A DNA stretch of 64,000 nucleotides from Clostridia bacterium (GCA_045594665.1 JAZNYX010000062.1:98460-162459), one strand, 5' to 3'; positions 32,061-49,754 are shown, counted from the first letter of the stretch. Made by a program: numbers and translations. Notes: generated by a model not told the origin, from the sequence alone.

Positions 32061-32079
32061 ATGATACATCCGCAACTTG

Positions 32080-32130
32080 AATAAAAGCCGATACTTACTG
32101 TTTTATTCAGTAAGTATCGGCTTTTATTCA
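32080..32130. terminator. bidirectional terminator marking the left border of the AT-rich island
   Basis: aataaaagccgatacttactg-ttttatt-cagtaagtatcggcttttatt. Confidence 0.65.
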
Positions 32131-32145
32131 AGTATTATTTTCTCA

Positions 32146-32788
32146 CTATTTTTTAAATACAAATAAATATTCGTGTGCAATAAGTAGAAAATTATATTTT
32201 ACACTATTTGTCTTCCAATATCCCGTTGCCTTACAATTATGCTGCTCTTTTATAATAAGTTCTTTCAATTTAAATCCTGCATCTTCAAACATACGCATAA
32301 CATCGAAAGACATTGGTATCATATGACCTTTTTGCCTTGTATCACCCATAAGCACTGCACAAAACTTGTCTTTTTTTAGCACACGATAACTCTCTGTTGC
32401 CACTTTCTTCATTTCTTCAAGAAAGTCCTTTACTTTTAATTGCGACAAATCACCCTCAATGCCATCACTATACTTAATAATATCGGCATATGGCGGATGA
32501 GTACATATCAAATCTATGCTCTCCTCAGGAACAAAATCAAGATTCCTTGCATCACCTTTTTTGATATACACCTTTCCCCTTGCAGGTTCGTAATCAAATG
32601 TCGTTTTTTCTCTGCATCGCTCAAGTGCAGTGTCATTTACATCTACACCAATTATATCACGATTTAAAAGTTTTGCTTCTATAAGAGTTGTACCGCCTCC
32701 GGCAAATTGATCAAGAACCAAATCCCCCTCTTGCGAATATCGTAAAATAATATTTCTTGGTATGTATGGAGACCAATTGCCTCGCCAT
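32146..32788 (-). CDS. small DNA methyltransferase (N6_N4_Mtase fold) with motif I before motif IV (permuted relative to DpnA-type); catalytic motif reads HPPY
   Basis: Extended manually upstream of the ORF-track TTG start to the ATG at 32788 (in-frame TGA at 32798-32800). IHTRKYYFTIFARGDLVLDQFAGGGTT matches the motif X/I helix. SIDLICTHPPYADII...FCAVLMGD...FKLKELII matches the motif IV-VIII half of DpnA-like enzymes. Confidence 0.6.
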
Positions 32789-32790
32789 TG

Positions 32791-32994
32791 CTATATTTCA
32801 ATCCAATCAGGTTTTTCTCTACATGGTGTCACGACAGCCATATGTTTATGCTGAACTTCTCCCGGTTCTAATATAAATTCTCCTTCGTTATACTTTTGGC
32901 GTGCAATCTCTATAGCTTTCTCCTCGTTTTCTGCAATAACTTCAAATTCATCTACAACAGTTTCTTCTATTGCAATAGTATATTTTTTCATCAT
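32791..32994 (-). CDS. DpnD/PcfM-like small protein (function unknown)
   Basis: 67 aa; MKKYTIAIEETVVDEFEVIAENEEKAIEIARQKYNEGEFILEPGEV follows the DpnD/PcfM pattern as I recall it. Confidence 0.45.
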   Translation of the reverse strand: MMKKYTIAIEETVVDEFEVIAENEEKAIEIARQKYNEGEFILEPGEVQHKHMAVVTPCREKPDWIEI

Positions 32995-33701
32995 ATCACT
33001 CTTTCGATTATCCTGTTTTCAATATCATATTGTGTCATTAAAGCGTCGTAATTTACAAAACTAACAATATCTTTTATAGGTGCATATATTGAAGAATTTA
33101 TAATATCATCAAATTGATGTTTTCTTTCTTTAGCAGCTACAATATAAAATTTTGCTCTAAAATCTTGTAATTCGTAGAACTTGTTCAATGAATTTTTAAT
33201 ATCAGTTGAGTGTTCTACTTCGTAAAAAGCACAAGGCATTTTTCGTTCGTTAAACCAAATCGTGTCAACCGTTTTTGCTTTTCTTAAAATTTCGGGATAT
33301 GTAAAATCATAAATCTTATCCGTTGTGGTTATCTCTGATAACTTCGTTTCTAAAAACAATTTGTTTTTATCTTGAGGTGGTACATAAGTATCAAATTTTC
33401 TTAAATTACCTATTTTAACAATAATTCCTTGAAAATATGAATGTGTAAATTCATTTATGCTATTTTCATTTTTAGTATCAATTTTAAATTTTTCTAAAAC
33501 AACCTTTTCATATTCTTTTAATGCCCACAACCCCGATTGCACCCTAAAAAATTCATCATTTGTTTGTACAATTCTTCTTATGGATGCAAAAGGTGTTTTT
33601 GTTCCCCATGTAGAAAAATCTACTAATCCATTCAATTGCTGAAATGTGGCATATCCACCATTTTTCTTCATTGCCTCTATAACATATTCTTTTTGTTTCA
33701 T
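32991..33701 (-). CDS. putative restriction endonuclease: N-terminal HARE-HTH winged helix plus C-terminal nuclease-like domain
   Basis: N-terminus VIEAMKKNGGYATFQQLNGLVDFSTWGTKTPFASIRRIVQTNDEFFRVQSGLWALKEY matches the HARE-HTH pattern as I recall it. C-terminal part has acidic/lysine clusters (VDTIWFNERK, YEVEHSTD) compatible with a PD-(D/E)xK-type site. Confidence 0.45.
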   Translation of the reverse strand: MKQKEYVIEAMKKNGGYATFQQLNGLVDFSTWGTKTPFASIRRIVQTNDEFFRVQSGLWALKEYEKVVLEKFKIDTKNENSINEFTHSYFQGIIVKIGNLRKFDTYVPPQDKNKLFLETKLSEITTTDKIYDFTYPEILRKAKTVDTIWFNERKMPCAFYEVEHSTDIKNSLNKFYELQDFRAKFYIVAAKERKHQFDDIINSSIYAPIKDIVSFVNYDALMTQYDIENRIIERVI

Positions 33702-34648
33702 AGAAAAAGTACTCCATTTCCATCTGAATTGCTAACAACCATTTTAGCACCTTTTTTGTGCATACATTCAACAAATTCAGCAAGTTCAATTTGTTCTTTG
33801 TCATTAAACAAACCCTCTGTATATGCGGTGAAGCTTGCTGTCTCCGTTAAAGGTCTGTAAGGAGGATCAAAATAAACAAAAGTATGCTCATCAATGAACG
33901 CTGCGGATTCTCTATAATCTCCACAAACAATTTTAACATTTTGAAGTTTCCCAGATACAGCTCTTAGATTCTTTTCATCACATATGAGAGGCTTTTTATA
34001 AGAACCCATGGGAACATTAAAGAGACCTTTTTTATTCACTCTAAACAATCCGTTAAAGCAAGTTTTGTTAAGGAATATCATCAACGCTGCTTTTTCAATA
34101 TTTTCAGTCTCGTTACCATTAACTTTCAAACCATTAAATCTATCTCTTTTTGCCATATAGTATGACTTTCTATTTTCTGTTTCAAGAGGAACATACTCTC
34201 TTTGGTATTTTTCAAGCAACTCTATAAGTTCCCCAATATGCTCTCTTATGATAACATAGGTATTTATGAGTTCAGCATTTATATCGCTAATGTAAATCTG
34301 TTCCAAGTCATATTTGCTGAGAATGTCAAAAAGCACAGCACCGCCTCCGACAAATGGCTCCGCATACTTTGTAATAGTACCATTATCAAAAGGATAATAT
34401 TTTTCAATTTCTTTCAAGAGTTGTCCTTTACCGCCTGCCCATTTTAGGAAAGGCTTCACACATTTTTCATCAGTAGCGTTATGTCTTGTACTTCTTGCAT
34501 CACTAGGTTTCTCAGCACTTATAGGAATCAGCCACATATTGCCTAACATTTGAGCATTTGCTATTCTATTTTTAGAACAGAGAACAGCTACACGCCTTTG
34601 GGAGATACCCCACTTATCAGCAGCTTCTCTTGCAGACATAACTTCCAT
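33698..34648 (-). CDS. Dam-family (D12 class) N6-adenine DNA methyltransferase with an N-terminal excisionase-like HTH
   Basis: FLKWAGGKGQLL (motif I) and VYFDPPY (motif IV) of the MethyltransfD12 family. The first ~55 aa (MSAREAADKWGISQRRVAVLCSKNRIANAQMLGNMWLIPI) look like an HTH_17-type DNA-binding domain. Confidence 0.7.
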   Translation of the reverse strand: MEVMSAREAADKWGISQRRVAVLCSKNRIANAQMLGNMWLIPISAEKPSDARSTRHNATDEKCVKPFLKWAGGKGQLLKEIEKYYPFDNGTITKYAEPFVGGGAVLFDILSKYDLEQIYISDINAELINTYVIIREHIGELIELLEKYQREYVPLETENRKSYYMAKRDRFNGLKVNGNETENIEKAALMIFLNKTCFNGLFRVNKKGLFNVPMGSYKKPLICDEKNLRAVSGKLQNVKIVCGDYRESAAFIDEHTFVYFDPPYRPLTETASFTAYTEGLFNDKEQIELAEFVECMHKKGAKMVVSNSDGNGVLFL

Positions 34649-34808
34649 AAAACTAAACTCCTTATCCTTTATTAACTATATTATATTCTAAAGCTCGAAT
34701 AAAAGCAATACCATTTTAATTTTTTTCACAAAAATGCGAACATTTGTTTGCATTTTTTATTTTTTTGTGCTATACTGTTTCTACAACACTGAAAAAGAGG
34801 TGTATTCT

Positions 34809-36122
34809 ATGGAGCTTATGGAGAAACTCAAGATTCTTGCAGACAGTGCCAAATACGATGCCTCCTGTTCTTCAAGCGGAAGCTCGCGCACTACAGATTA
34901 CGGAGGCATTGGCTCGCCCACTGCGGCAGGCTGCTGCCACGCCTTTTCCGCAGACGGCAGATGCATTTCCCTTTTAAAGGTGCTGTTTACAAACTATTGC
35001 ATCAATGATTGCAAATATTGCCACAACCGAATTTCCAACGACATTCCCAGGGCAACGTTTACTCCCGAAGAACTGTCGGAGCTGTGTATTGATTTTTACA
35101 GGCGTAATTATATAGAGGGTCTTTTTCTAAGCTCGGGAATCATAAAATCCCCCGACTATACGGCGGAGCTTCTCCTTAAAACATTGCAGCTTCTCCGCTT
35201 TAAATACGGGTTTAACGGATATATCCATGTAAAAGGGATTCCCGGAGCCTCGGAAAGGCTCATCCGTGAAATAGGCTTTCTTGCCGACAGAATGAGCGTC
35301 AACATTGAGCTTCCCAGCGAAAAGGGGCTAAGGCTTTTAGCTCCGCAGAAAACCAGGGAAAGCGTGCTTTCTCCCATGAAGCTTATAAAGGAAACAATTT
35401 CCGAGGTAACGGAGACTTCCCTTATCACACGACACAAACAGCATTTTGTCCCTGCAGGGCAAAGCACTCAAATGATAATCGGCGCAACGGGCGATTCCGA
35501 CCATCATATTTTAAGCTTAACACAGGCTCTTTATAATAAATATGCCCTTAAAAGAGTGTATTTTTCCGCATATATCCCCGTAGGCAACCACCCTGCACTG
35601 CCAAAGGATATTCCTCCTCCGCTTCTTCGGGAGCACAGACTTTACCAAGCTGACTGGCTCATGCGTTTCTATGGCTTTGAGGCAAAAGAAATTCTTGACG
35701 AGGGGGAGTCCTTTGACCCTCTTTTGGACCCTAAATGCAACTGGGCAATGAAAAACATTCACCTTTTCCCCGTGGAAATAAACACAGCCCCCTATGAAAT
35801 GCTCCTGAGGGTGCCGGGAATAGGCGTTGTCAGTGCCAAAAGGATATATCGGGCAAGAAAAGTATGCACTCTTGATTTTGAGGATTTGAAAAAACTGCGT
35901 GTTGTCCTAAAAAGGGCGGCGTACTTTATTACCTGCAAGGGGAAATACATGTATAACTCATTCAAAATGAACGAAGCCTTTATCTATGATTCCCTGGTGC
36001 ATACAAGCCCAATGCTTGAATCGGTAAGAAGGATGCAGCAGCTTTCATTTTTTGACGGAAGCTACGACCATCTTCTGCCTCCGCCTGTCGAGAGGCTTAC
36101 GGCAGTTTCGGGACAACTATAA
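34809..36122 (+). CDS. putative DNA modification/repair radical SAM protein (TIGR03916-like)
   Basis: MELMEKLKILADSAKYDASC... N-terminus and radical-SAM cysteine triad (CINDCKYCHN). Paired with the downstream DUF4130 gene, as is typical of this family. Confidence 0.7.
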   Translation: MELMEKLKILADSAKYDASCSSSGSSRTTDYGGIGSPTAAGCCHAFSADGRCISLLKVLFTNYCINDCKYCHNRISNDIPRATFTPEELSELCIDFYRRNYIEGLFLSSGIIKSPDYTAELLLKTLQLLRFKYGFNGYIHVKGIPGASERLIREIGFLADRMSVNIELPSEKGLRLLAPQKTRESVLSPMKLIKETISEVTETSLITRHKQHFVPAGQSTQMIIGATGDSDHHILSLTQALYNKYALKRVYFSAYIPVGNHPALPKDIPPPLLREHRLYQADWLMRFYGFEAKEILDEGESFDPLLDPKCNWAMKNIHLFPVEINTAPYEMLLRVPGIGVVSAKRIYRARKVCTLDFEDLKKLRVVLKRAAYFITCKGKYMYNSFKMNEAFIYDSLVHTSPMLESVRRMQQLSFFDGSYDHLLPPPVERLTAVSGQL

Positions 36123-36196
36123 TAAATGCGGAGTGCGGAATTATAATTATGAAACAGGATAATACATTTCAGTTTTAATGAAAAGGGGTGATTTTT

Positions 36197-36964
36197 ATGA
36201 ATTACAGTGAAATAACAGACAATTCTTCAATTTATTATCTTTATGACGGGAGCTTTGACGGGCTTTTAACTGTGGTGTATCAGGCAGTTTATTCCCGGAT
36301 AACTCCCTGTGGGATAGGCACGGAGAAAAACCTCCAGCTTAGCTTTGGCACCCGTTACGCAGAGGTAATTACAAACAAAAATTATGCACGCAGGGTGTAC
36401 AGTGCACTTTATAAAAAAATAGGCTCTTTCGGGCTTCGCCGCATTTACTACATTTTTTTAAGCAACGACAGCCAAAAGGACCTCATTATATACAAATATA
36501 TGATGCTGGGCTTTAAAAACGGACAAAAGACCAATTCAGCTCTTTCCGACGATACAGTTTCCGCCGCATTTCAGATTGCACAGAATGTTTCACGTGAAAC
36601 AGAGAAATATCGTCAGTTCACACGGTTTAGCGTTATGGATTGGGGTGTTCAATATGCCAAGATAACTCCTCAAAACAACCTTCTGCCTGTTCTTACCCCG
36701 TTTTTTATACAGCGGCTTAAGGTTATTCCCTTTGTTCTGCACGATGCCACGCATAACCTTTGTGCCGTCTATGACACCAAGGACTGGCATGTTTCCTCCA
36801 GCGAGGGGCTAACTTCGCCCTCTAAAAGCACCCGTGAAGAAGATGTGGAAAAGCTTTGGAAAACCTTTTTTGATGCCATCGCCATAAAAGAAAGATACAA
36901 CACCAAGCTTCAAAAACAAAACATGCCGTCGGTGTACTTCAAAAGCGTATGGAGCATAAGATAA
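36197..36964 (+). CDS. DUF4130 probable DNA-metabolism protein (TIGR03915-like partner of the radical SAM enzyme)
   Basis: 256 aa, YLYDGSFDGLLTVVYQA... Conserved partner of TIGR03916 radical-SAM proteins. AAAGGGG ribosome-binding site before the ATG at 36197. Confidence 0.6.
   Translation: MNYSEITDNSSIYYLYDGSFDGLLTVVYQAVYSRITPCGIGTEKNLQLSFGTRYAEVITNKNYARRVYSALYKKIGSFGLRRIYYIFLSNDSQKDLIIYKYMMLGFKNGQKTNSALSDDTVSAAFQIAQNVSRETEKYRQFTRFSVMDWGVQYAKITPQNNLLPVLTPFFIQRLKVIPFVLHDATHNLCAVYDTKDWHVSSSEGLTSPSKSTREEDVEKLWKTFFDAIAIKERYNTKLQKQNMPSVYFKSVWSIR
36586..36601. promoter_or_regulatory. parS centromere-like site (perfect TGTTTCACGTGAAACA) inside the DUF4130 gene
   Basis: Exact 16-bp palindromic consensus. 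Confidence 0.85.
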
Positions 36965-47316: not shown

Positions 47317-47529
47317 TTAAGGAACCGGGTCATATCCGCCTTTGCAAAACGGATTGCATCTTAAAATTCTTCTTACAGACAAATAAAGCCCCTTTATAAC
47401 ACCATGCTTTCTAAATGCTTCCAAAGCATATTCAGAGCATGTGGGCGTAAAGCGGCAACAAGGTTTTTTAAGCGGTGAAATATATTTTCTGTAAAATTTT
47501 ATTAAACCTATAAAAACGTTCTTAATCAA
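47317..47529 (-). CDS. yidD: membrane protein insertion efficiency factor YidD
   Basis: 70 aa; [23 protein letters not shown] signature. Confidence 0.9.
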
Positions 47530-47857
47530 TTAAATTCAGCCCGCTTTCTCCAAGCGCACCTTCTAAATCTCTCCCAATTTCATGAAATGTTGCCTTAGCA
47601 CTGCTTGTGCGTGCCACCAAAACCAAATCATATCCTTGGGGTATACCTTGCAAAAGTCTGTAATTTTCTTTTAAAAGCCTTCTTACTCTGTTTCTTGTAA
47701 CGGCACATCCCACCTTTGGAGAAACCGTTATACCCAGTCTTGTAAAAGAATATCTGTTCTTTCTGTAATATAAAACCAGTCTCTTTTTTACAACTGATTT
47801 TCCTCTGTAATAAAGTCTTTTAAAATCGCTGTTTTCTTTGATGGAAATAATTTTCAT
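47522..47857 (-). CDS. rnpA: ribonuclease P protein component
   Basis: 111 aa, basic; [24 protein letters not shown] motif. Confidence 0.9.
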
Positions 47858-48430: not shown

Positions 48431-48452
48431 TTTTTTGAAGGAATGTTTACTT

Positions 48453-49754
48453 ATGACATCTGATTTAATGCAGTTATGGACAGAGTGTCTTATTCTCATG
48501 GAGGACGAGGTTACGCCCGTAGGTTTTTCCACATGGATTAAAGACATTAAACCCGTTAAAATCAAGGATAATGTTTTAACCCTTTCCGTAAGCACAAACA
48601 TTATTAAAAACATGGTGGAGCTTCGTTACAGCGACCTTATAAAGAATACACTTACCGAAATAACAGGAAGATATTTTGAGGTTGAGTTTGTTATAGGCGA
48701 TAATTTTTATGAAAAAAGAAGACCTGCCTATTCAAATACATACGAAAAATATACCTTTGATAATTTCGTTGTAGGTAATTCAAACAGGTTCGCACAGAGT
48801 GCTTCTCTTGCGGTTGCAGAGGCTCCTGCTTATGCTTACAATCCTCTTTTCCTCTATGGAGGAGTAGGTCTTGGTAAGACGCATCTGATGCATGCTATCG
48901 GAAATTATATAAAGAGCAATAATCCTGATGCAAGGATTGAGTTTTTAAGTGCGGAAACCTTTACCAATGAGCTTATAAATTCAATTAAGGATAATACAAA
49001 CCAGGAATTTCGTGATAAGTACAGAAATATAGATGTTCTCTTGGTGGACGATATTCAGTTTATTGCAGGCAAAACTACTACAGAGGAAGAATTTTTCCAT
49101 ACATTTAACGCTCTGCATGAAGCAAATAAGCAGATAGTACTTACAAGTGACCGTCCTCCCAGCGAAATTAAAACATTGGAGGAAAGGCTTCGCAGTAGAT
49201 TTGGATGGGGACTGATGTGCGAAATACAAAGCCCCGATTACGAAACGAGAATGGCTATTTTAAGAAAAAAAGCCCAGGATGACGGAGTCCTCATAAGCGA
49301 CGATATAATTGAATTTATTGCACAAAAAATAAAATCAAATATACGTGAGCTTGAAGGAGTATTTAACAGAGTTGTTGCTTACCGCGGACTTATTAACAAG
49401 GAAATAACAATTGACGTTGCAATGGAGGCCCTTAAGGATTACGGGGATTCAAAGGAAAAGAAAATAACTCCCGAATATATAATAGAGGCCTGTGCAAATT
49501 TTTATAATGTTAAGAAAGAAGATATTTTTTCCGAAAAAAGGACAAAGGATGTGGCATTTGCCCGTCAGGTTTCTATTTATATAATAAGAGAAATTACTAA
49601 TTTCTCATTTCCTAAAATAGGCTCTTTCTTCGGAAAAGACCATGCTACAGCCATTTACGCCATAAAGCAGGTTACAAAAGCAATGGAAAATGATATAGGT
49701 ATAAAAGTTAACATTGAAGGTCTTATAAATGATATTAAAGGATCTAATAACTAA
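48453..49754 (+). CDS. dnaA: chromosomal replication initiator protein DnaA
   Basis: AAA+ motifs (GGVGLGKTHL, VDDIQF) and C-terminal DNA-binding domain. GAAGGA ribosome-binding site before the ATG at 48453. Confidence 0.95.
   Translation: MTSDLMQLWTECLILMEDEVTPVGFSTWIKDIKPVKIKDNVLTLSVSTNIIKNMVELRYSDLIKNTLTEITGRYFEVEFVIGDNFYEKRRPAYSNTYEKYTFDNFVVGNSNRFAQSASLAVAEAPAYAYNPLFLYGGVGLGKTHLMHAIGNYIKSNNPDARIEFLSAETFTNELINSIKDNTNQEFRDKYRNIDVLLVDDIQFIAGKTTTEEEFFHTFNALHEANKQIVLTSDRPPSEIKTLEERLRSRFGWGLMCEIQSPDYETRMAILRKKAQDDGVLISDDIIEFIAQKIKSNIRELEGVFNRVVAYRGLINKEITIDVAMEALKDYGDSKEKKITPEYIIEACANFYNVKKEDIFSEKRTKDVAFARQVSIYIIREITNFSFPKIGSFFGKDHATAIYAIKQVTKAMENDIGIKVNIEGLINDIKGSNN

Follow-up and report, generated by a model that had tools for sequence, protein, structure and literature searches.

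What does a compact, AT-rich island of four genes, two for methyltransferase-like proteins and one for a nuclease-like protein, do in the genome of a Clostridia bacterium, and how was it assembled? The island was found in a stretch of 64,000 nucleotides (GCA_045594665.1, JAZNYX010000062.1:98460-162459; this 64-kb stretch is referred to as the window, and coordinates given without a locus name are positions in the whole of it). An initial annotation, made from the sequence alone, likened the island to the Dpn cassettes and proposed either a modification-dependent restriction system co-resident with two methyltransferases or a novel four-gene restriction-modification variant. Comparison with related loci indicates that the island is very probably a DpnII-type cassette that was gutted and now carries a DpnI-type module, with DpnI itself replaced by an unrelated protein, here called B. 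Our overall reading, to which we assign a probability of roughly 50%, is that the locus switched from GATC methylation to the restriction of methylated DNA, with B as a non-homologous stand-in for DpnI.

General organization of the island

The island is comprised of four open reading frames (ORFs), as noticed initially, tightly packed on the minus strand between positions 34648 and 32146: A (34648-33698), B (33701-32991), C (32994-32791) and D (32790-32146, or 32721-32146 when counted from its first in-frame start). The overlap ATGA, in which the stop of one gene meets the start of the next, joins A to B and B to C. The G+C content is 0.330 for the island, 0.278 for gene B and 0.353-0.356 for the methyltransferase pieces A and D, compared to 0.43 in both flanks and 0.414 for the window, so that the dip reported previously is real, although its size (30% against 45-50%) had been overstated.

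Two truncated methyltransferase genes

ORF A (33698-34648, minus strand; 316 amino acids (aa)) is a 3'-truncated gene for a Dam methyltransferase of the D12 class (MethyltransfD12 of Pfam, 2.5e-59) with an N-terminal helix-turn-helix (HTH) domain. The HTH covers residues 1-55 (34484-34648) and remains under the Pfam thresholds (HTH_59, 1.2e-4; HTH_17, 1.5e-3), and the methyltransferase part covers residues 62-309 (33722-34465); ORF A also matches a PHROG excisionase (8.6e-7). The HTH-Dam fusion described in the initial annotation is thus present, although it is standard for a family of 356-aa proteins and not unusual; what had been missed is the loss of the 3' end. The best 120 homologues of ORF A are 80-91% identical to it and almost all 356 aa long, and the homology to these intact genes ends after the residues VSNSD (codon 309). 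About 47 C-terminal residues, nearly invariant across the 356-aa family, are gone, and the final 7 codons and the stop of ORF A derive from inserted DNA. Profile coverage stops short as well, at positions 1-228 of 267 for TIGR00571, 1-231 of 253 for the Pfam model, and residues 10-242 of 284 for DpnM (2dpm), the closest solved relative (3.6e-47). An AlphaFold2 (AF2) model of the intact 356-aa protein, made to map the lost C-terminus, was poor (predicted local distance difference test (pLDDT) 67, with 44-61 in the C-terminus) and was discarded.

ORF D (32146-32790, minus strand) is the 5'-truncated gene of a second, permuted N6_N4 methyltransferase and corresponds to residues 36-249 of a 249-aa protein (PADLOC PDLC03376, aligned over 36-249 of 249 with 3.6e-125), the homologues of which measure 248-249 aa. 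The junction lacks a start codon, and the first in-frame start, a TTG at 32721, gives 191 aa. The N6_N4 model of Pfam is matched by two halves in swapped order, with motif I (FAGGGTT) preceding motif IV (HPPY), and HPPY was found in 66/66 homologues of the second methyltransferase, intact ones included. Motif order and tetrapeptide are therefore as first described, while the proposed length of 214 aa does not hold, as no start codon exists there; the figure arose because the TAG stop of the DpnD gene (ORF C) is in frame with ORF D, which had been read on from the next codon. As for the HTH fusion, the permuted order and HPPY, all three are shared across the family of intact cassettes, and none is peculiar to the window locus. 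The catalytic motifs FxGxG, DPPY and HPPY are intact in the methyltransferase pieces. Besides these two pieces, no Dam or N6_N4 gene was found within the 64-kb window, and no DpnII-like ORF was found in the island or elsewhere in the window.

Intact and DpnI-type sister cassettes

Two sister loci from other genomes account for the truncations. In locus L006 the cassette is intact: the 356-aa HTH-Dam is accompanied by a DpnII endonuclease (PF04556, 6.3e-111) and by the full 249 aa of the second methyltransferase. Locus L007 has a Dam reduced to residues 1-309, followed by DpnI proper (matched by PF06044 'Dam-replacing family' with 1.3e-82, and by DpnI_C), DpnD and what is left of the second methyltransferase. 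In a blastn comparison of the window with L006, positions 34713-33722 and 32789-32150 align at 82-85% identity, and the 931 bp between them are unrelated. L007 leaves L006 at the same left breakpoint as the window, and on its right side the homology resumes directly after the DpnD stop; between the window and L007, DpnD aligns too, but B and DpnI do not. The resemblance to Dpn cassettes pointed out in the initial annotation is real.

The inserted module (32791-33721, minus strand, 931 bp, G+C content 0.294) consists of a ribosome-binding site (RBS; GGAG), gene B and the DpnD gene, shares its breakpoints with the DpnI-type locus L007 and shows no alignment with the intact cassette of L006. Judged from these alignments, it stands in the place of the DpnII endonuclease gene and of the inner ends of both methyltransferase genes. 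In the window, L001, L007 and L020, divergence sets in right after codon 309, and an RBS-like GGAGT is common to all four; in L001 and L007 the second methyltransferase resumes at codon ~31, right behind the stop of DpnD, and the window has an extra deletion of 11 nt at that junction. Only ~30 residues of the second methyltransferase are left in L020 and L033, and a frameshift in the Dam remnant of L088 splits the HTH from the methyltransferase part. Locus L001 possesses the four genes of the window, with a B that is 96% identical, between different host genes, as expected of a mobile island; the genes that flank the island in the window were found in none of the fetched loci, and identity look-ups of the window proteins, aimed at sister strains or an unoccupied site, gave no record.

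The survey of such cassettes covered 80 species genomes carrying a close Dam homologue, which are not phylogenetically independent and represent at least two groups, Clostridia and Selenomonas. Dam is full-length in 72 of the 80 genomes, truncated in six and cut by a contig end in two. Forty-seven of the 72 full-length genes belong to the arrangement Dam, DpnII endonuclease, second methyltransferase, 12 are accompanied by another central gene, and 13 stand in an incomplete or other arrangement. DpnI follows a truncated Dam in 6/6 genomes and a full-length Dam in 0/72. The two methyltransferases of the island are hence not co-resident partners, as first supposed, but the outer remnants of one DpnII-type cassette, intact in 47/80 survey genomes. 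The sequence GATC is strongly depleted in the window (observed/expected ratio (O/E) 0.22; 31 observed, 142 expected), in the intact DpnII-type hosts (O/E 0.32) and in the DpnI-type hosts (O/E 0.18); being strong in both host types, the depletion reflects lineage history and does not discriminate between the hypotheses considered here.

The truncated Dam arms are nearer to some intact gene of another genome than to fellow truncated arms: the synonymous divergence (dS) is 0.115 between L001 and L006, versus 0.67 to >3 for pairs of truncated genes. Sliding windows revealed mosaic arms, the identity of which to intact genes reaches 98-99% as far as the breakpoint itself. We read this as ongoing homologous recombination between cassette types via the methyltransferase arms, a reading drawn from sequence comparison. 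The ratio of nonsynonymous to synonymous divergence (dN/dS) of both arms, 0.03-0.10, is indistinguishable from that of pairs of intact genes. Mosaic recombination with intact alleles explains such low values, and therefore dN/dS cannot tell whether the stubs are functionless.

The centre of the intact cassettes (L008-L087) is a hot spot for other genes, located beside or instead of the DpnII endonuclease gene. These encode a 178-aa PDDEXK_11 protein (12 loci), MutH/Sau3AI-like (5) and Mrr_cat proteins (4), genuine HARE-HTH proteins of 307-315 aa (L009, L015), a TIR-domain protein (L028), DUF6996/DUF6997 (L044) and two uncharacterised families. In two Selenomonas loci, L078 and L082, a truncated Dam is followed by a DpnI (49% identical to the L007 enzyme), and the second methyltransferase is seemingly full-length (residues 4-249); such an enzyme may thus be tolerated beside a methyl-dependent endonuclease, as a DpnA-like single-strand methylase would be.

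Protein B and its small partner

ORF B (32991-33701, minus strand) encodes a 236-aa putative modification-dependent endonuclease, composed of a winged helix (residues 1-65; 33507-33701) and a PD-(D/E)XK cleavage domain of the NmeDI_C type (residues ~79-236; 32994-33467). The AF2 model (pLDDT 95.6) contains the winged-helix fold, and a PD-(D/E)XK fold with its catalytic acidic residues is predicted for the remainder. H87, Q91 and D146 are invariant in the family and D111, E161 and E163 (E161-x-E163) nearly invariant; D146, E161 and E163 are kept in every homologue covering those positions, and conservation of the winged helix equals that of the nuclease domain. PF27126 ('NmeDI_C', a newer Pfam family) is precomputed on all close B homologues, and the PADLOC profile REase_II PDLC03534 matches B with 3e-6 over positions 230-297 of its 351. 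Nothing useful was obtained with the local copy of Pfam, NCBIfam or PHROGs, and neither single-sequence nor profile searches of the PDB gave a match. The initial annotation had described B as HARE-HTH plus nuclease: the winged-helix fold and the nuclease domain stand, but the Pfam HARE-HTH family (PF05066) gives no match at E<=0.1, while the same library gives 4.9e-10 for the genuine HARE-HTH protein of L009. Nor is B a diverged DpnI at the level that sequence methods detect, since hhalign of the B family yields a probability of 0.1%, PF06044 and PF17726 do not match, and the DNA also fails to align.

The family is large. A word-indexed search retrieved 4,362 B homologues at E<=0.001, nearly all of ~236 aa, clusters of which lie on >1,000 contigs of Ruminococcus bromii, and an exhaustive search of 50%-identity cluster representatives returned 674 representatives of the family. 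A full-length homologue (44% identity, annotated as hypothetical protein) is located on the haloarchaeal megaplasmid pSTJ001 of Halobacterium hubeiense (L168, 244995-245723), with no annotated methyltransferase within 6 kb, so that the family spans the boundary between bacteria and archaea. In L135 (1548-2522) and L125, a 324-aa N6_N4 methyltransferase directly downstream of the B homologue carries an N-terminal extension that by eye resembles the winged helix of B (...ESIRARIYEKIG..FERVAKGVYR); endonuclease and methyltransferase may share a reader domain there.

ORF C (32791-32994, minus strand), the start of which overlaps the stop of B by 4 nt, encodes the 67-aa DpnD/PcfM-like protein of the initial annotation (DpnD-PcfM of Pfam, 8.9e-10). 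The gene shows DNA homology to its DpnD counterpart in L007, and B homologues of the closest clade are followed by a DpnD ORF with an identical 4-nt overlap. A search of the literature on DpnD function or the R. bromii methylome found nothing relevant. In a more distant clade of B (L124, 4708-5070; L132; L164; L165; L166, 1380-1799), B is followed by a small protein of 70-139 aa which is not recognisable as DpnD and shares a motif like ...EG...PN...EN.Q.LG...G....A...L...N.WI...GF; it may be a DpnD analogue. A further family of 65-70 aa follows B in L139, L143, L155 and L162. Neither of these two families has a Pfam match.

Genomic contexts of B

The contexts of B were examined in 80 metagenome loci and other fetched loci, of which 82 B loci entered the count. 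No relic of a methyltransferase or endonuclease lies within 4 kb of B in 62 of the 82, and in the closest clade (71-76% identity, Ruminococcus bromii-like) B and DpnD stand alone. In the window, L001, L088/89, L124, L166 and L117, B is immediately preceded by a 5' stub of Dam in the same orientation. The breakpoints of these stubs are of at least three or four kinds (window/L001/L088, L124, L166 and L117) and hence record several independent events. The second methyltransferase is often kept downstream of B (L134, L157, L166 and the L145-type loci).

A reader domain joined to a non-specific cutter, usually without a methyltransferase, is the typical build of modification-dependent enzymes (PMC11037411), and B has this build. 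Its architecture and its neighbourhoods make it probable that B is modification-dependent. That its target is the Dam-type site Gm6ATC is a narrower claim, for which we see about even odds.

Six loci of one type (L145, 5076-5400; also L147, L149, L151, L152 and L156), consisting of B, DpnD, the DpnII endonuclease and the N6_N4 methyltransferase, contain, inside the DpnII-family endonuclease gene, a segment of ~300 bp bounded by perfect inverted repeats of 17 bp (CCGATATTTTCACTCTT). Two contigs have this segment in reading orientation, and four have it inverted, with the gene broken; its two forms are 84% identical, compared to 95-97% for the flanks. By its inversion, this segment may act as an on/off switch of the restriction enzyme.

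Proposed origin and mode of action

The ancestral cassette would have contained a promoter/operator, HTH-Dam (356 aa), a DpnII-family endonuclease and the permuted N6_N4 methyltransferase (249 aa). A DpnI-type module, that is a methylation-dependent endonuclease with DpnD, would then have replaced the endonuclease gene together with the last 47 codons of Dam and the first ~31-35 codons of the second methyltransferase. As both genes lost ends to this replacement, A and D are most likely inactive remnants. The simplest history would start from a single ancestral replacement by DpnI and DpnD, after which DpnI was swapped for B, the module spread to other cassettes, and local deletions followed.

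In the resulting operon, B and DpnD would be transcribed from the old Dam promoter and translationally coupled to the truncated Dam ORF, and autoregulation by the HTH of this ORF may persist. The predicted cassette promoter and an operator-like inverted repeat lie at 34680-34708 (minus strand), with the -35 element TTGCTT at 34708-34703, a 17-nt spacer, the -10 element TATAAT at 34685-34680 and the inverted repeat TATTC-N8-GAATA at 34701-34684, followed by the RBS AAGGAG at 34663-34658. This promoter block of 30-40 nt is kept in intact and truncated cassettes of many genomes, Selenomonas included, and the homology to other cassettes starts at about 34713-34716.

B itself would combine a winged-helix reader with a non-specific PD-(D/E)XK cleavage domain of the FokI/NmeDI_C kind. 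With the host GATC sites presumably no longer methylated, the winged helix would bind methylated incoming DNA, most likely at Gm6ATC, and B would cut nearby. The logic of the locus would thereby have changed from 'methylate self, cut unmethylated' to 'stay unmethylated, cut methylated'. The methyltransferase remnants would serve as homology arms by which cassette types are swapped between genomes through recombination, as in the pneumococcal DpnI/DpnII case. The modification-dependent restriction suggested in the initial annotation thus went in the right direction, although not as part of a novel four-gene system.

A wider extension of this proposal, which we advance tentatively and hold somewhat less probable than its denial, is that B and its more than 4,000 relatives, which abound in Ruminococcus bromii, a keystone species of the gut, constitute an unrecognised family of N6-methyladenine (Dam-site)-dependent endonucleases. 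Together with DpnI they would be interchangeable 'Dam-replacing' modules with methyltransferase stubs as arms. In this extension B works with DpnD in the closest clades, and gut Clostridia flip the locus between methylating GATC and restricting methylated GATC.

Alternative explanations

The truncated Dam ORF may have been kept for a use other than methylation, either as an HTH autoregulator of the operon or as a leader that supplies B and DpnD with a promoter and with translational coupling. This is compatible with the replacement of DpnI by B and is a serious, if not the favoured, possibility. The promoter with TATTC-N8-GAATA is conserved before all HTH-Dam genes, intact or truncated, the Dam remnant is present in every DpnI-type and B-type locus while the second remnant is often lost, and the stop of A overlaps the start of B. 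An autoregulatory role of the HTH fits less well with L124 and L166, where the remnants upstream of B stem from Dam genes without HTH, and with L088, where the frameshift separates the HTH from the methyltransferase part.

Several observations weigh against B as a Gm6ATC-dependent stand-in for DpnI. In L146, a system of Dam, DpnII endonuclease and N6_N4 methyltransferase that looks intact directly follows B and DpnD; in L145 and L149, B and DpnD are accompanied by a DpnII endonuclease gene with an open frame and by a second methyltransferase that is intact; and full-length methyltransferases stand beside B in L167, L135 and L148. The B copies beside intact methyltransferases all keep the conserved residues and can therefore not be dismissed as dead. 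The winged helix of B has no detectable sequence similarity to that of DpnI, and it aligns, weakly but in register, with that of a genuine HARE-HTH protein. The truncated arms display no relaxed selection and no frameshifts, which fits a retained function as well. Finally, many unrelated defence genes occupy the site that lies between the methyltransferases, so that the presence of B there does not by itself fix its specificity.

A Gm6ATC-dependent B should clash with methylating neighbours, unless the second methyltransferase acts on single-stranded DNA only, as DpnA-like second methyltransferases do (PMC3573125), or expression is controlled. Validated winged-helix enzymes that depend on Dam methylation show apparent conflicts of this kind in somewhat less than 10% of cases (PMC11037411). 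With these two precedents, the conflicting loci weaken the Gm6ATC reading and do not exclude it.

Some of these observations also speak for the strongest competing account, in which B is a type IV nuclease for another mark (modified cytosines, or N6-methyladenine in other contexts) that merely sits in a defence hot spot, the stubs stemming from an earlier replacement by DpnI and being silent on the target of B. Besides the intact DpnII-type system of L146 and the second methyltransferases of the L145-type loci, this account can draw on a clade of 63% identity in which B adjoins type I HsdR genes, on the Mrr_cat, TIR, HARE-HTH, MutH-like and PDDEXK_11 genes between Dam and the second methyltransferase of intact cassettes, and on the alignment with HARE-HTH, a domain argued to read cytosine modifications (PMC11037411). 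It leaves unexplained why the double-strand methyltransferase M1 is destroyed or absent beside B in ~14 loci, with several independent breakpoints, and intact in one, and why B has a DpnD partner and occupies the exact position of DpnI; moreover, validated Gm6ATC winged-helix enzymes have a similar fraction of conflicts, below 10% (PMC11037411). We consider this account unlikely, though it deserves more weight than the two that follow.

A role of B as an ordinary, methylation-sensitive endonuclease of type II/IIS, comparable to R.NmeDI, to which it is distantly related, and with a cognate methyltransferase elsewhere in the genome, is improbable. The NmeDI_C nuclease domain and the REase_II match would agree with this, as R.NmeDI is a classical type II enzyme (PMC2095814), and so would the N6_N4 methyltransferase adjoining the B homologue in L135 and L148 and the strong depletion of GATC in the window. 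However, the absence of a methyltransferase relic within 4 kb in 62 of the 82 B loci is unusual for type II, both island methyltransferases are truncated, the sister loci carry on the same scaffold DpnI, which needs an unmethylated host, and GATC is equally depleted in DpnI-type hosts.

Least probable is the working four-gene restriction-modification variant of the initial annotation, with both methyltransferases active alongside the nuclease: the four open frames, the intact motifs, the low dN/dS of both methyltransferase pieces and the recurrence of the arrangement in L001 would allow it, but 47 conserved C-terminal residues of Dam and 35 N-terminal residues plus the start codon of the second enzyme are absent, the shrunken second remnant of L020/L033 and the frameshifted Dam of L088 mark the remnants as dispensable, and the low dN/dS is owed to recombination with intact alleles.

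Comparison with known systems

The closest precedent for alternative cassettes is the pneumococcal pair DpnI/DpnII (PMC3573125; dpnC-dpnD versus dpnM-dpnA-dpnB). In common with it are two mutually exclusive sets at one locus, one a GATC-methylating set of two methyltransferases and the DpnII endonuclease and the other a methyl-dependent endonuclease with DpnD, as well as exchange by homologous recombination, the presence of DpnD, and DpnM as the closest solved relative of ORF A. The present cassettes differ in that the homology arms are truncated methyltransferase genes and not neutral flanks, in the gene order M1, R, M2, in the N-terminal HTH of M1, and in an M2 that is a permuted HPPY enzyme and not DpnA. 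They also occupy different chromosomal sites across genomes, and the window has the unrelated B for DpnI.

A replacement of Dam is also known from the neisserial drg gene (NmeBII; PF06044). There, an endonuclease cutting GmeATC takes the place of the dam gene, the inserted DNA is poorer in G+C than the host, and the states dam+ and drg+ exclude each other (PMC516771, PMC4269198). Unlike B, Drg is homologous to DpnI, and the Neisseria case concerns an orphan dam gene and not a cassette with two methyltransferases.

With the winged-helix N6-methyladenine-dependent type IV enzymes (Helbrecht et al. 2024, PMC11037411), B shares the small winged-helix reader joined to a nuclease and the mostly stand-alone occurrence. 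Those enzymes cleave outside the recognised site and occasionally adjoin inactivated methyltransferases, and frameshifted methyltransferases beside DpnI-like enzymes are on record (PMC11037411). The combination found in B, with the winged helix at the N-terminus and a PD-(D/E)XK domain of the NmeDI_C type behind it, is not listed in that study, and no R. bromii entry was found in the supplements examined. R.NmeDI, a type II enzyme of 351 aa which recognises RCCGGY and cuts on both sides, has a C-terminal nuclease domain homologous to that of B (PMC2095814), but it is larger and has a different N-terminal part and a cognate C5 methyltransferase, whereas B has 236 aa, a winged helix and usually no methyltransferase nearby.

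If the proposed switch is correct, the pneumococcal DpnI/DpnII alternation would be a widespread modular strategy in gut anaerobes, with the stubs doubling as recombination handles, and B would define a candidate family of methylation-dependent restriction enzymes that published winged-helix screens did not list. B would then block the transformation of R. bromii and its relatives with DNA from dam+ E. coli, and could provide a new reagent for the detection of N6-methyladenine. Automatic annotation labels both stubs 'DNA methyltransferases', a label by which methylome predictions for these genomes would be misled.

Flanking sequences and composition of the window

Just beyond the island, in host DNA, a perfect hairpin of 26 bp with A and T runs on both sides is located at 32075-32133 (dG -39.7 kcal/mol, z -11.7); the cassette homology stops at 32147-32150. 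The strong terminator-like structure noticed initially is therefore real, and it is likely a bidirectional terminator, as predicted from its sequence. At the other end, the island directly adjoins a conserved-looking pair of genes with normal G+C content (34734-36964), one for a radical SAM protein (462-aa ORF) that includes a helix-hairpin-helix domain, the other for a DUF4130 protein of 258 aa. This pair lies outside the cassette and may act on DNA.

The region 37253-57269 we take to be the neighbourhood of the chromosomal origin, with gene names read from N-terminal sequences: presumably serS, parB/parA/noc-like, rsmG, mnmG, mnmE, jag, yidC and rnpA (47522-47857), and further dnaA (48435-49754), dnaN, recF, gyrB and gyrA. 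The island lies ~14 kb from the gene so read as dnaA, which places it on the chromosome and not on a plasmid or phage.

Other short palindromes besides GATC are extremely depleted in the window, with CTAG occurring once in 64 kb (O/E 0.03), GGCC at O/E 0.16 and CCGG at 0.26, and CATG, TGCA and GTAC are near 0.8-1.0. This palindrome depletion suggests a long history of several restriction systems in the lineage.

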